NCBI RefSeq assembly: GCF_000026545.1
Contig: NC_011601.1
Length of the DNA: 64,000 nucleotides
From: Escherichia coli O127:H6 str. E2348/69
Lineage (GTDB): Bacteria; Pseudomonadota; Gammaproteobacteria; Enterobacterales; Enterobacteriaceae
Strand: one strand, 5' to 3'
Position numbers and translations under genes: made by a program. Positions 3,928 to 6,553 of the stretch are shown one piece after another; the first letter of the stretch is position 1, and the number at the start of each line of letters is the position of its first letter. Below the pieces are notes generated by a model that was not told the origin of the DNA, did no database searches, and was given only the letters and a program-made list of their open reading frames with translations.

Positions 3928-3944
3928 GGGCGTTTTACTTGACT

Positions 3945-3973
3945 GAAAAGGTTTTCAATCTGAAAACCTTTTC
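3945..3973 (+). terminator. perfect 12-bp stem hairpin (GAAAAGGTTTTC-loop-GAAAACCTTTTC) after yiiD
   Basis: inverted repeat read directly; lies between yiiD (+) and the convergent esterase gene (-). Confidence 0.6.
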
Positions 3974-3990
3974 TGGGCCCTGGTCCGGAG

Positions 3991-4941
3991 TTACCTTCCC
4001 GCTCTCCAGGCAACATCCCGTAGCGCCGATCGCGCAGCCTCACTGATACCACCTAACTGAAAAAATCCGTGGATAACGCCAAGGTAGCGTTGGCAGGTGC
4101 ATTGCACTCCTTGCCCTGTCATGCGGTGATACAACGCTTCACCTTCATCGCAAAGTGGGTCGTATTCAGCGGTAATGATATGTACAGGTGGCAATCCATT
4201 GAAATCATTGCGCCAAATAGGGCTGGCTTCAGGATGCCTGCGTTCAATGCCTGGCAGGTACATCTCAAAGCCGCTCAGTAAAGTGTCGCGTGTGATGATG
4301 TAATCGTGACCATTGCGTATGTAGCTTTCGAAATGCGCAGTCGCATCAAGCATAGGATAAATTAAGATGAGTTGTGCTGGTTGCCACTCGCCAGCACGCT
4401 TCAATCGCAAAGCAGTTACCTGCGCCAGATGCCCTCCCGCACTGTCACCGGCAAGAGTTATTCGTTGTTTATCAACGCCGAGTCGTTCGGCGTGTTGCCG
4501 GACTAATTCTGCACCTCGTTGTGCATCATCATGGGCGGCGGGGAAAGTATGTTCCGGTGCCAGCCGATACTGGACGGCAATAATCCGACATTGCCCGTAA
4601 TAGGCTAACTGGCGCAGCTGGTTGTCGTGAGTTGCGAACCCGCCGCTAACAAAACAGCCACCGTAGTAATAAATTATCGTCGGGAGTAATGTCGGGGCAT
4701 TCAGCGGTGACACTATTCGTAAGGTCATCCCTTCAAGTTCGATAGTCTGAATATCTACCCGCGTTTCTGTCTCACCCGCAAGGACAGCGCTGGCGATATA
4801 GCCCTCTCTGCGCTGCGTAATACTTTGTTGGCGCGATGAGGGGCGACCCGCAGCGATAAACTCTTCGACTAACTCTGCAATTCCTTTTTCCAGTGCCATA
4901 GTAGAACTCATTTTGCTGTATGAATGTACAGTTTTATACAC
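3991..4941 (-). CDS. alpha/beta-hydrolase fold esterase/lipase (Aes/HSL-family-like)
   Basis: GDSAGG nucleophile-elbow motif and YGGCF oxyanion-hole-like motif; true start uncertain (candidates at M1, M11, M15 of the track ORF); not expected at this position from K-12 order. Confidence 0.7.
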   Translation of the reverse strand: MYKTVHSYSKMSSTMALEKGIAELVEEFIAAGRPSSRQQSITQRREGYIASAVLAGETETRVDIQTIELEGMTLRIVSPLNAPTLLPTIIYYYGGCFVSGGFATHDNQLRQLAYYGQCRIIAVQYRLAPEHTFPAAHDDAQRGAELVRQHAERLGVDKQRITLAGDSAGGHLAQVTALRLKRAGEWQPAQLILIYPMLDATAHFESYIRNGHDYIITRDTLLSGFEMYLPGIERRHPEASPIWRNDFNGLPPVHIITAEYDPLCDEGEALYHRMTGQGVQCTCQRYLGVIHGFFQLGGISEAARSALRDVAWRAGR

Positions 4942-5073
4942 CCGTTTTTACTGGATGGATACAGGGAAATTCACGGGCGTGAAAAATCTGGAAAGCGCCT
5001 CGCAAATGTAAAGACAAACCCGGCAGAGACGTGGTTTTGCTGGAGCACTATCAGTAAGCTAGTGGTTTCAAGG

Positions 5074-5090
5074 GTACGTCAATGACGTAC
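5074..5090. promoter_or_regulatory. perfect palindrome GTACGTCA-A-TGACGTAC upstream of the toxin-antitoxin pair; putative antitoxin operator
   Basis: 8-bp inverted arms read directly, about 40 bp upstream of the higB-like ATG; a TATAAT hexamer also sits at 5121-5126. Confidence 0.4.
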
Positions 5091-5127
5091 AAAAAGGATT
5101 GTTACTCTAAGCCAATGGCGTATAATT

Positions 5128-5439
5128 ATGCTCTTCATCGAAACGGAAATTTTTACTGAAGATGTTCAAAAACTGCTGACCGACGATGAATTCAGTCGTT
5201 TTCAGTTTTTCCTGGCCTTGAATCCTGACTATGGTGAGGTAATACCTGAAACTGGTGGGTTAAGAAAGGTTCGATGGGTGTCAGGAGGAAAGGGGAAACG
5301 TGCTGGTGTCAGGGTTATTTACTTTCATCAGGTTAAACATTATGAGATCAGATTACTGCTTATTTATCGTAAGGGTATTAAAGATGATCTGTCTCCCCAG
5401 GAAAAAGCAATGCTCCGGTTGTTAAATACGAGGTGGTAA
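5128..5439 (+). CDS. RelE/HigB-superfamily toxin (type II TA)
   Basis: 103 aa, basic, toxin-first order, stop abuts the antitoxin ATG; sequence style typical of HigB-like addiction-module killers. Confidence 0.7.
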   Translation: MLFIETEIFTEDVQKLLTDDEFSRFQFFLALNPDYGEVIPETGGLRKVRWVSGGKGKRAGVRVIYFHQVKHYEIRLLLIYRKGIKDDLSPQEKAMLRLLNTRW

Positions 5440-5730
5440 ATGGATAAGGCACTTTTTGAGCGGTTGACTCACAGCATGGCCCAGATGAATGAAATTATTG
5501 AAGGAACGCGACAGCCTTCGCGGACTTTTGAAGTTGATGCTATGAAAATCAAAGAAATACGCCGCGCTTCAGGGTTGTCACAATCTAAATTTGCCGATCT
5601 TATTTCTGTAAGCGTAGACACGTTGCGTAACTGGGAGCAGGGGCGACGTTCACCGACCGGGCCTGCAAAGGCTTTGCTGCGAGCGATTGCCAATGATCCG
5701 CAACATGTGCTGCAAGCACTTAACCGTTAG
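5440..5730 (+). CDS. XRE-family HTH antitoxin (HigA-like)
   Basis: 96 aa; HTH signature SGLSQSKFADLISVSVDTLRNWEQGRR; ATG immediately after the toxin TAA with GAGGTGG SD inside the toxin 3' end. Confidence 0.7.
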   Translation: MDKALFERLTHSMAQMNEIIEGTRQPSRTFEVDAMKIKEIRRASGLSQSKFADLISVSVDTLRNWEQGRRSPTGPAKALLRAIANDPQHVLQALNR

Positions 5731-6198
5731 AGGCATGGTTATGCCATACAGAAAGCACCAGCATTCAGAACTCCTGTGAAAGCGGCGTAGTGCCACCTGC
5801 TCAGGAGTTTTGCTATGACCCGTAATCGTGCTGACCGTTGCCACCCTATGATGCGATTAAAAAAACTCATCGTCGCGCCGATGATTGACGTCAATGCTAT
5901 CGGATGATGTCAGGGGTGTTCCGGAAGGAATTCCTTGTTTCCCGAACTGTTACCAACAAAATTATAACGATGAGCAAGTTAAGACCGGTTGGTAGCAGTA
6001 CTGACCGGTCTGTGATGGATGATTAATTTCACCTTAAATCCGGGTGCTGTTAGGATGCTGACATTTTTCGGCTACACCATTCAGATTATGCAATTAAAGA
6101 TCCAATCAAAAAATAAACATCCCTGTATATAATATATTCATAGCACCTATAATTCATTTTGGGCGATAACTAAACCATTTTTGAGTAACAAATGAAAC

Positions 6199-6242
6199 AA
6201 CTGCAACGGACTTATTATTTCTGGAAAACGTCTCGCAAAAAC
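6199..6242. repeat. copy 1 of a ~45-bp motif (AACTGCAAC...TCTGGAAAACGYCTCGCRAAA) upstream of yiiE
   Basis: direct comparison with the second copy at 6647-6691, roughly 75 percent identical by eye. Confidence 0.5.
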
Positions 6243-6334
6243 AAAACAATATGAAAAAATCCGCTTTCGTTAATTAACTTTCCGGCGTAATTTTCGCACA
6301 TACATTAATGAGTAATATATGTAAGGTGGTGGTA

Positions 6335-6553
6335 ATGGCGATGAATACGGTTTTTCTTCATTTATCAGAAGAGGCAATTAAACGGCTGAACAAGCTTCGG
6401 GGATGGCGTAAGGTTTCGCGCTCTGCAATTTTACGCGAAGCGGTAGAGCAATATCTGGAGCGGCAGCAATTTCCGGTGCGTAAGGCAAAAGGCGGCAGGC
6501 AAAGGGACGAGGCAGTTGGTGTTGAAGAACTATGTAAGCAGCATAAGGAATGA
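6335..6553 (+). CDS. yiiE: ribbon-helix-helix (CopG/MetJ-like) small regulator
   Basis: 72 aa from MAMNTVFLHLSEEAIKRL; position between yiiD and fdhE; symbol could equally be the paralog yiiF. Confidence 0.6.
   Translation: MAMNTVFLHLSEEAIKRLNKLRGWRKVSRSAILREAVEQYLERQQFPVRKAKGGRQRDEAVGVEELCKQHKE

Follow-up and report, generated by a model that had tools for sequence, protein, structure and literature searches.

A short basic ORF, a helix-turn-helix gene that starts where the first one stops, a perfect palindrome upstream and a TATAAT hexamer almost touching the first start codon raise the question of what this pair of genes in E. coli is, and of how the amounts of its two products are set. 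A first-pass annotation proposed a HigB/HigA-like module with the toxin gene first, an operator in the palindrome, and a toxin whose translation is leaderless or inefficient and so stays below that of the antitoxin. We followed up these proposals in the whole stretch of DNA that was analysed, here called the window, which is 64 kb long. Our preferred reading, to which we assign a probability of roughly 0.8, is that the locus is a type II toxin-antitoxin operon that lies on the chromosome and belongs to the HigBA2 family, with a mechanism like that of its characterized homologues. This family comprises pairs of a PF06296 'RelE'/HigB2 toxin with a HigA2-type XRE antitoxin.

Identity of the two ORFs

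The first ORF, at 5128-5439 on the plus strand, encodes a basic protein of 103 aa (pI 9.3), and is followed at 5440-5730, on the same strand, by a gene for a 96-aa XRE-HTH protein that matches HTH_3 with an E value of 3e-9. The sizes, charge and order of the two products are thus as first described. The 103-aa protein matched, without gaps over residues 2-99, five V. cholerae HigB-2 chains of the PDB (phmmer, E 1.5e-19 to 9e-19), and it is 42% identical to V. cholerae HigB2 (VcHigB2) in an alignment, A1, that combines the toxin, six enterobacterial homologues and VcHigB2. No K-12 or Shigella HigB chain appeared among the PDB matches with E values up to 1. The top Pfam match is PF06296, at a sub-threshold score (i-Evalue 0.0062, 17.2 bits), and some orthologues at 70-73% identity carry a precomputed match to the same family. 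No NCBIfam model matched the protein, nor did any of the PADLOC models for anti-phage defence. The wider family is large, with 1702 homologues at E up to 1e-5, mostly of 103 aa, and the names given to them in the sources are 'RelE/ParE family toxin' or 'Toxin HigB-2'. Judged by this homology, the 103-aa ORF is a HigB2-family toxin of the RelE/ParE superfamily and of PF06296 type, and we refer to it below as the toxin.

The 96-aa product has the make-up of a HigA2-like antitoxin and autorepressor, with a predicted N-terminal toxin-binding segment and a C-terminal XRE HTH. It matches HigA-2 in the PDB with an E value of 1.8e-8, and BLASTP aligns it with V. cholerae HigA2 (VcHigA2) at 31% identity over residues 2-88 (E 9e-13), a span that includes the N-terminal neutralising helix. 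It also scores 60.7 bits (E 1.2e-16) with the NCBIfam model NF041265, NadS, just above the cutoff of 60 bits, in a match that spans positions 3-87 of the 94-position profile; it resembles YiaG (PRK10072) and MqsA-type HTH domains, and drew generic HTH matches only from PADLOC. A search of the accessible literature for the origin of the name 'NadS' found nothing relevant; one paper merely mentions a nadS gene annotated in K-12 BW25113. The recognition helix, TLRNWEQGR, is near-invariant across 81 antitoxin homologues. Two residues of the antitoxin that correspond to base contacts of VcHigA2 are retained almost without exception, N64 (N72 in VcHigA2) in 80 of the 81 and R69 (R77) in all of them; the other two contacts, R68 and E71 in VcHigA2, are D60 and R63 here. 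The homology of both proteins upholds the HigB/HigA-like, toxin-first assignment and makes it more precise, placing the module in the HigBA2 subfamily.

Genomic setting and carriage

The gene order around the module is yihX-yihY-dtd-fabY, an alpha/beta hydrolase gene on the minus strand, the toxin and antitoxin ORFs, yiiE and fdhE-fdoIHG. Of 5426 complete E. coli genomes, 2635 (about 49%) contain an 851-bp region with the module, covered by more than 80%. Nissle 1917, LF82 and ATCC 25922 are among the carriers. Of 2636 carriers of the toxin gene, 2476 have a full-length copy with an identity of at least 99%; for the antitoxin gene, the same identity is reached in 2232 of 2635 genomes. Frameshifted or truncated toxin copies are few and confined to the tail of the carrier ranking. 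Among six E. coli alleles sampled for comparison, the toxin gene shows three nonsynonymous changes and one frameshift, and the changes in the antitoxin gene all fall at third codon positions. This small sample hinted at decay of the toxin gene in E. coli, an idea that the 2476 full-length, nearly identical copies speak against. The intact and highly conserved state of the toxin gene across the species argues instead for expression and selection.

In all carrier genomes sampled, RefSeq labels the toxin 'hypothetical protein' or, in a few, 'RelE/ParE family toxin', and the antitoxin nadS or 'NadS family protein'. The 'hypothetical' label can be traced to the sub-threshold Pfam score and the lack of a matching NCBIfam model. 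Carried by about half of complete E. coli genomes under such 'hypothetical' and 'NadS' labels, the module can be missed by toxin-antitoxin inventories.

The interval between fabY and yiiE is a variable site among E. coli strains. Some strains hold a different HigB/HTH cassette there, of K-12 or SehAB type; further strains hold a transposase and have kept no more than the last 26 nt of the antitoxin gene; and K-12 itself has about 475 bp of unrelated AT-rich DNA. Two direct repeats, TCTGGAAAGCGCCTCGCAAA (4987-5006, plus strand) and TCTGGAAAACGTCTCGCAAA (6220-6239, plus strand), agree at 18 of 20 positions and bracket the module, and a strain with another cassette has a single copy at the junction. 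Outside E. coli, a syntenic module lying between fabY (often with the hydrolase gene) and fdhE was found in 14 loci from Citrobacter, Enterobacter, Salmonella arizonae, Kluyvera, Leclercia, Lelliottia, Klebsiella spallanzanii and Siccibacter, 13 of which have fabY inside the stretch fetched. Downstream of the antitoxin gene, an imperfect hairpin at 5766-5812 (plus strand, 76% complementary, fold z-score -1.9) followed by TTTTG is possibly, and at best tentatively, the transcription terminator of the operon. A terminator scan did not call this hairpin, and Rfam matched no RNA family within 4800-6400.

Operators

The palindrome that drew attention to the upstream region, GTACGTCA-A-TGACGTAC, occupies 5074-5090 and is perfect, with its 3' end 37 nt and its centre 46 nt upstream of the toxin ATG, in keeping with the distance of about 40 bp first given. 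Perfect palindromes are not rare in this DNA: the window contains 11 with arms of eight bases and a loop of 0-3 nt, where first-order Markov simulations give 5.5 +/- 3.0. The significance of this one therefore comes from its context and not from its rarity.

That context is a sequence shared by the whole family. Aligning the 70-nt stretches that precede 80 homologous toxin genes, one genome per species, gave us a family operator consensus, TACGCCANTGGCGTA, which can be written TACGCCA(A/T)TGGCGTA. With up to two mismatches it occurs 92 times in the 8.4 kb of upstream regions (the 100 nt before each of the 80 toxin genes) and once in a background made up of the remaining 382 kb of the same loci, an enrichment measured on the very loci from which the consensus was derived. 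At least one site precedes the toxin gene in 65 of the 80 loci when two mismatches are allowed and in 71 when three are; at the latter stringency, 35 loci have two sites. Within the window, exactly two sites lie within two mismatches of the consensus, and both are no more than 55 nt upstream of the toxin ATG. One is the palindrome, which we call O1 (two mismatches). The other, O2, is TAAGCCAATGGCGTA (TAAGCCA-A-TGGCGTA) at 5108-5122; it had been missed earlier, has a single mismatch, and is the best match to the consensus in the window. O2 is centred 13 nt before the toxin ATG, so that the two centres are 33 bp apart, or about three helical turns. Such agreement with the consensus is far beyond chance, although the palindrome on its own is not rare. 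Specificity belongs to the 14-base family consensus only: the 10-base V. cholerae core TACGC-N5-GCGTA gives 27 matches in the window at up to two mismatches against 29 expected, which is no enrichment, and is uninformative by itself.

The operator of VcHigA2, TGTACGC-N5-GCGTACA, has been footprinted and crystallised, and it starts past the -35 hexamer and runs over the -10 (PMC11006873). O1 has the core GTACG-N7-CGTAC, identical to that footprinted site in core and spacing, and a homologous site is found at -48 in the 13 syntenic orthologues that have an intact toxin gene. The proposal that the palindrome serves as an operator is thus credible, and O1 may well be the distal binding site of a HigA2-type repressor. 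The proximal site is also kept: its centre lies at -13 or -14 throughout the syntenic clade, and the CCAATGGCGTA of O2 is retained in the orthologues. As far as the sequence matches go, O1 and O2 overlap a candidate -35 and a candidate -10/start region, respectively.

Promoters and transcript start

We aligned the upstream region of the window with those of the 13 syntenic orthologues with an intact toxin gene. Three blocks are conserved in this 14-sequence alignment: O1, a TAnTnT hexamer at 5103-5108, and O2. O1 includes ATGACG (5082-5087, plus strand), a candidate -35 that reads TTGACG in most orthologues and whose TGACG is invariant. The candidate -10 is TACTCT (5103-5108, plus strand), which reads TACTAT, TAATAT or TATTAT in orthologues; its T1 is conserved in at least 90% of the sequences, its A2 and T6 are invariant, and its first two positions lie outside O2. 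The spacer is 15 nt here and 16 nt in the orthologues, and TTGACG-16-TA(C/A/T)TAT is the best-scoring promoter in most relatives. Because the hexamers are kept together with O1 and O2 as blocks in the orthologues, we regard this promoter, P1, as the probable conserved promoter of the operon. Its predicted start at about 5114-5115 would leave a leader of about 13 nt that lacks a Shine-Dalgarno sequence. P1 looks weak in E. coli, with its ATGACG, its 15-nt spacer and its TACTCT. Across the six alleles, both operators and both candidate promoters are unchanged save at three positions: 5090, the last base of O1, 5091, and 5115, the central base of O2. The change at 5091 is a 1-nt deletion within an A-run in the LF82 allele, where the P1 spacer is therefore 14 nt. 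A literature search for published transcription start data for the E. coli HigB-2 locus found none.

The TATAAT hexamer sits at 5121-5126 and ends 1 nt before the toxin ATG, as the first-pass annotation had noticed. Its first two bases, however, are supplied by the right arm of O2, and the bases between O2 and the ATG vary among orthologues (TATTAA, TACTCA, TATGGA, TATGAT and others), so that TATAAT as such is not conserved. It therefore fails as a cue for leaderless initiation; mostly, the hexamer appears to be the arm of a second repressor-binding site.

It is possible, nevertheless, that the hexamer belongs to a promoter. The sequence TTGTTA-16-TATAAT (5099-5126, plus strand), which we call P2, agrees with the sigma-70 consensus at 10 of 12 positions and is the sole such match on the plus strand in 1.5 kb. 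Its predicted start, at about 5132-5135, falls inside the toxin ORF. Since messages from P2 would begin past the toxin AUG, they could yield HigA2 only, and if P2 were the main promoter, most transcripts would encode the antitoxin alone: the locus would serve chiefly as a HigA2/'NadS' regulator that controls its own synthesis, and its toxin, expressed from a weak P1 only, would be nearly silent. Several observations favour this reading. P2 is placed relative to the operator exactly as the V. cholerae higBA2 promoter is, to whose position it corresponds (GCG-TACACT there, GCG-TATAAT here); a TAnnnT hexamer with a TTGnTA-like -35 is found in all seven loci of the Enterobacter/Leclercia/Lelliottia subclade; and the P1 spacer is short in E. 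coli, at 15 nt, and shorter still in the LF82 allele. Extra antitoxin promoters have also been reported in other toxin-first modules, mqsRA and P. aeruginosa higBA among them.

The case against a leading role for P2 appears stronger. The hexamer takes the form TAnnnT only in the subclade of Enterobacter, Leclercia, Lelliottia and E. coli, and conservation of P2 does not extend to the orthologues from Citrobacter, Salmonella, Kluyvera and Klebsiella. Promoter-like matches of the same stringency are expected by chance 3.4 times per 1.5 kb, and positions 6-9 past TATAAT are all pyrimidines, a poor context for initiation. A nearly silent toxin would also be hard to reconcile with a toxin gene that is intact and highly conserved across E. 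coli. Moreover, a predicted internal antitoxin promoter of A. baumannii higBA2 proved inactive (PMC5906591). We consider it unlikely, on balance, that P2 is the main promoter.

It is tempting to speculate on how P2 could have arisen. An ancestral promoter embedded in the operator, which in V. cholerae would give a leaderless higB2 mRNA, may in E. coli and its forebears have shifted by 5 nt towards the start codon and been sharpened to TATAAT, such that it now gives an antitoxin-only transcript from inside higB2 and leaves the toxin reliant on a degenerate upstream promoter. We hold this scenario to be doubtful too. If it were true, the shift would be a mechanism in which the position of the transcription start sets the toxin:antitoxin ratio of a toxin-first module, and possibly a step towards a domesticated, stand-alone HigA2/'NadS' regulator.

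Predicted activity of the toxin

Mutagenesis of VcHigB2 has shown that R51, R64, Y82 and K84 are required for its activity (PMC5416850). These residues align with R49, R62, Y80 and K82 of the toxin and are invariant in alignment A1, which suggests that the toxin is an mRNase as well. It may be asked whether the protein could instead be a diverged member of the RelE/ParE fold with some other target, for example gyrase, as for ParE, or a cellular RNase, as for SehA. The sub-threshold Pfam match is compatible with such divergence, within the RelE/ParE superfamily a shared fold is known not to imply a shared function (PMC11980606), and the HigB-like SehA of Salmonella, which belongs to a different subfamily, is reported not to be an RNase itself but an inhibitor of RNase III (PMC12817084), a reminder that RNase predictions based on homology can fail. 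The 42% identity to VcHigB2, the ungapped match over 98 residues and the invariance of all four residues needed for mRNase activity nonetheless make a different activity improbable here, and SehA lies in another HigB subfamily, its partner SehB being a K-12 HigA-like protein of 142 aa. SehAB had itself suggested a characterized orthologue, as sehAB adjoins fdhE. That candidate was rejected, given the length and subfamily of SehB and the 96 aa of the antitoxin here. The 2013 SehAB paper is marked as retracted.

Translation starts and gene junction

The two start codons differ sharply in the sequences that precede them. The toxin start has no Shine-Dalgarno sequence (pairing of -1.5 kcal/mol), as the first-pass annotation stated. 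The antitoxin start is preceded by GAGGTGG at 5430-5436 (plus strand), which lies in the C-terminal codons of the toxin gene (..R-W) and pairs with the anti-Shine-Dalgarno sequence at -8.0 kcal/mol; this element, too, is where it was first placed. The toxin TAA (5437-5439) abuts the antitoxin ATG at 5440, again as described. This asymmetry extends to the whole family. Over 80 loci, the median pairing is -1.5 kcal/mol for the toxin and -8.2 kcal/mol for the antitoxin, and a Shine-Dalgarno sequence at or below -6 kcal/mol precedes the toxin in 3 of 80 loci and the antitoxin in 74 of 77. The conserved ..(E/T)RW end of the toxin encodes the antitoxin element. A stop codon that directly abuts the next start codon is limited to the Enterobacteriaceae clade (16 loci), and a 2-nt gap or short overlaps are found elsewhere. 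Poor translation of the toxin, held below that of the antitoxin, is thus a prediction supported across the family, and of the two possibilities first offered for the toxin, inefficient translation stands and leaderless translation does not.

A leaderless toxin message, starting at the A of the ATG (5128) and translated inefficiently, has in its favour the missing Shine-Dalgarno sequence and the geometry of the V. cholerae locus and of several distant homologues, in which the operator is centred at -18 to -20 and the start codon follows 6-8 nt past the -10, but it is very improbable here. Only 1 nt separates TATAAT from the ATG; the -10 that initiation at 5128 calls for would fall at about 5116-5121, where TGGCGT is not -10-like; and the O2 centre of the syntenic clade lies at -13 or -14 and not at -18. 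With initiation about 7 nt downstream of TATAAT, at +5 in the ORF, a leaderless toxin mRNA from this hexamer is impossible, and no AUG is found at the predicted P2 start (about 5133). Another candidate for leaderless initiation was a mini-ORF of 14 codons from the out-of-frame ATG at 5115-5117, at the P1 start. We set it aside: its frame relative to the toxin differs, with 13 nt in E. coli and 14 nt in the orthologues, and the ATG is already accounted for by the O2 palindrome.

Discussion

Our preferred reading of the locus, a HigBA2 operon with P1 as its promoter, brings these elements together. By homology with V. cholerae HigBA2, HigB2 would be a ribosome-dependent mRNA endonuclease that HigA2 neutralises through its N-terminal segment, and HigA2 dimers would repress the operon through the C-terminal HTH. 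O1 would cover the -35, and O2 the edge of the -10 together with the predicted transcription start. Transcription from P1 would give a leader of some 13 nt, and because this leader has no Shine-Dalgarno sequence the toxin should be poorly translated; the strong antitoxin Shine-Dalgarno sequence in the last codons of the toxin gene and the TAA-ATG junction would tilt synthesis in favour of the antitoxin. What the sequences themselves show is the homology, the conserved catalytic and DNA-reading residues, the two conserved operator matches and the Shine-Dalgarno asymmetry; toxicity and RNase activity, binding to DNA, the choice of promoter and the transcription start are all points that we infer.

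Some features reach well beyond this locus. Conservation of the HigA2 operator half-site and of the antitoxin's recognition helix extends from Enterobacteriaceae as far as Legionella, Pseudomonas, Thauera and Anaerolineae, and the family includes two architectures, one with a single operator and leaderless geometry and one with two operators. The pairing of a toxin gene that has no Shine-Dalgarno sequence with an antitoxin gene that has a strong one is a design common to the whole family. These results leave the understanding of type II toxin-antitoxin systems unchanged.

Among known systems, K-12 HigBA (YgjN/YgjM), Shigella HigBA and Salmonella SehAB share with the E. coli locus the toxin-first order and an HTH antitoxin. 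They belong, however, to another subfamily, with antitoxins of about 140-150 aa, a different HTH context and a toxin of another Pfam family. With the relE-yiaG modules and the 'NadS family' or YiaG-like HTH proteins the likeness is in the antitoxin, which resembles YiaG and just reaches the NadS cutoff, and PF06296 toxins paired with YiaG-like antitoxins have been described (PMC11980606). The relE-yiaG toxins have extended, disordered N-termini, which the E. coli toxin is without (PMC11980606). HigBA2 of the A. baumannii plasmid pAB120 shares the family name and the toxin-first architecture, a likeness drawn from its description; its antitoxin autorepresses, with the toxin, an RNase, in the role of co-repressor (PMC5906591). 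Unlike the E. coli locus, it is plasmid-borne and stabilises its plasmid (PMC5906591).

A literature search found no paper on this E. coli locus, and the closest comparison is with HigB2-HigA2 of a V. cholerae superintegron cassette (PDB 5JA8, 5JA9, 5JAA, 5J9I and 8A0X), which is likewise toxin-first. The toxins have the same R/R/Y/K active site at 42% identity; the antitoxins, at 31% identity, both combine an N-terminal neutralising segment with a C-terminal XRE HTH; the operators share the core (G)TACG-N7-CGTA(C), with a right arm that enters a TAnnnT hexamer; and in both loci the toxin is without a Shine-Dalgarno sequence and that of the antitoxin is in the 3' end of the toxin gene. A single operator lies between the -35 and the -10 in V. 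cholerae, whereas E. coli has two, 33 bp apart, the proximal one 5 nt nearer the ATG than the V. cholerae operator. The V. cholerae promoter, TTGCCA-17-TACACT, places the ATG at the seventh nucleotide past the -10 and the operator centre at -18, a leaderless geometry that E. coli does not have. The V. cholerae genes overlap by 14 nt, whereas the E. coli genes abut, and the E. coli toxin is 2 aa shorter at its N-terminus than VcHigB2. Finally, the V. cholerae module resides in an integron cassette, whereas the E. coli module occupies a conserved chromosomal site. Set beside these systems, the E. coli locus is apparently an ordinary, as yet uncharacterized member of the well-studied HigB2/HigA2 family.

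The fabY-yiiE interval as a variable site

The interval between fabY and yiiE (3928-6239 in the window; compared with loci L084, L085 and L090) is a hotspot of variation among E. coli strains, with four alternative contents. The first is the arrangement seen here, an alpha/beta hydrolase gene together with the HigBA2 module. In the second, the opposite strand carries another HigB/HTH cassette, one that resembles K-12 HigBA or SehAB in type. In the third, a transposase occupies the site and just the last 26 nt of higA2, the antitoxin gene, remain. The fourth is the K-12 state, an AT-rich filler of about 475 bp. The original paper on SehAB, the Salmonella pair of the other HigB subfamily (PMC3868539, PLoS Pathogens, 2013), is marked as retracted and is still cited in later SehB and SehA papers.

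The hydrolase gene encodes 316 aa on the minus strand (3991-4941), divergently from the toxin-antitoxin module, and is absent in K-12. The two are co-conserved at the syntenic site in nine loci of other enterobacterial genera, with 71-76% amino acid identity for the hydrolase. A direct repeat with 18 of 20 positions identical (4987-5006, TCTGGAAAGCGCCTCGCAAA; 6220-6239, TCTGGAAAACGTCTCGCAAA) encloses the module and approximately 490 bp downstream of it, and is present as a single copy at the junction in a strain carrying the alternative cassette. An insertion may have left this repeat as a scar, or recombination may use it as a substrate.

Sequences flanking the two genes

Upstream of the toxin gene, the LF82 allele (L087) has lost 1 nt from the A-run that lies between the candidate antitoxin operators O1 (5074-5090) and O2 (5108-5122), at the position equivalent to 5091 in the window. 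The deletion leaves the candidate promoter P1 with a spacer of 14 nt and the operators with a spacing of 32 bp. We also note an out-of-frame ATG at 5115-5117, at the centre of O2 and at the predicted P1 transcription start, which would begin a 14-codon ORF (5115-5159) that overlaps the start of the toxin gene. The syntenic orthologues of other Enterobacteriaceae do not conserve the frame of this ATG: the offset is 14 nt there, as against 13 nt in the window.

About 155 nt 3' of the antitoxin stop lies a perfect palindrome, ATTGACGTCAAT (5884-5895), that has the 9-mer ACGTCAATG in common with O1. It gave no match to the full operator consensus at three or fewer mismatches, and may have arisen by chance. 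In strain GON1437 (L089, 965-1050), RefSeq annotates a hypothetical protein of 73 aa that starts roughly 85 nt 3' of the antitoxin stop; the same ATG in the window opens merely a short ORF of some 31 codons (5816-5911), and alleles differ by an indel at about 5791.

Variant forms of the toxin protein

The LF82 toxin carries R58C in the conserved GKGKR loop (equivalent to 5299 in the window). Database entries for the toxin include several of 122 aa with a 19-aa extension at the N-terminus, as well as a toxin-antitoxin fusion with an HTH domain (P0005, 181 aa; 99% identity over 95% of the query). Both the extended and the fused entries probably reflect sequencing errors, frameshifts or gene-calling artefacts, although relE-yiaG genes have been described in fused form (PMC11980606).
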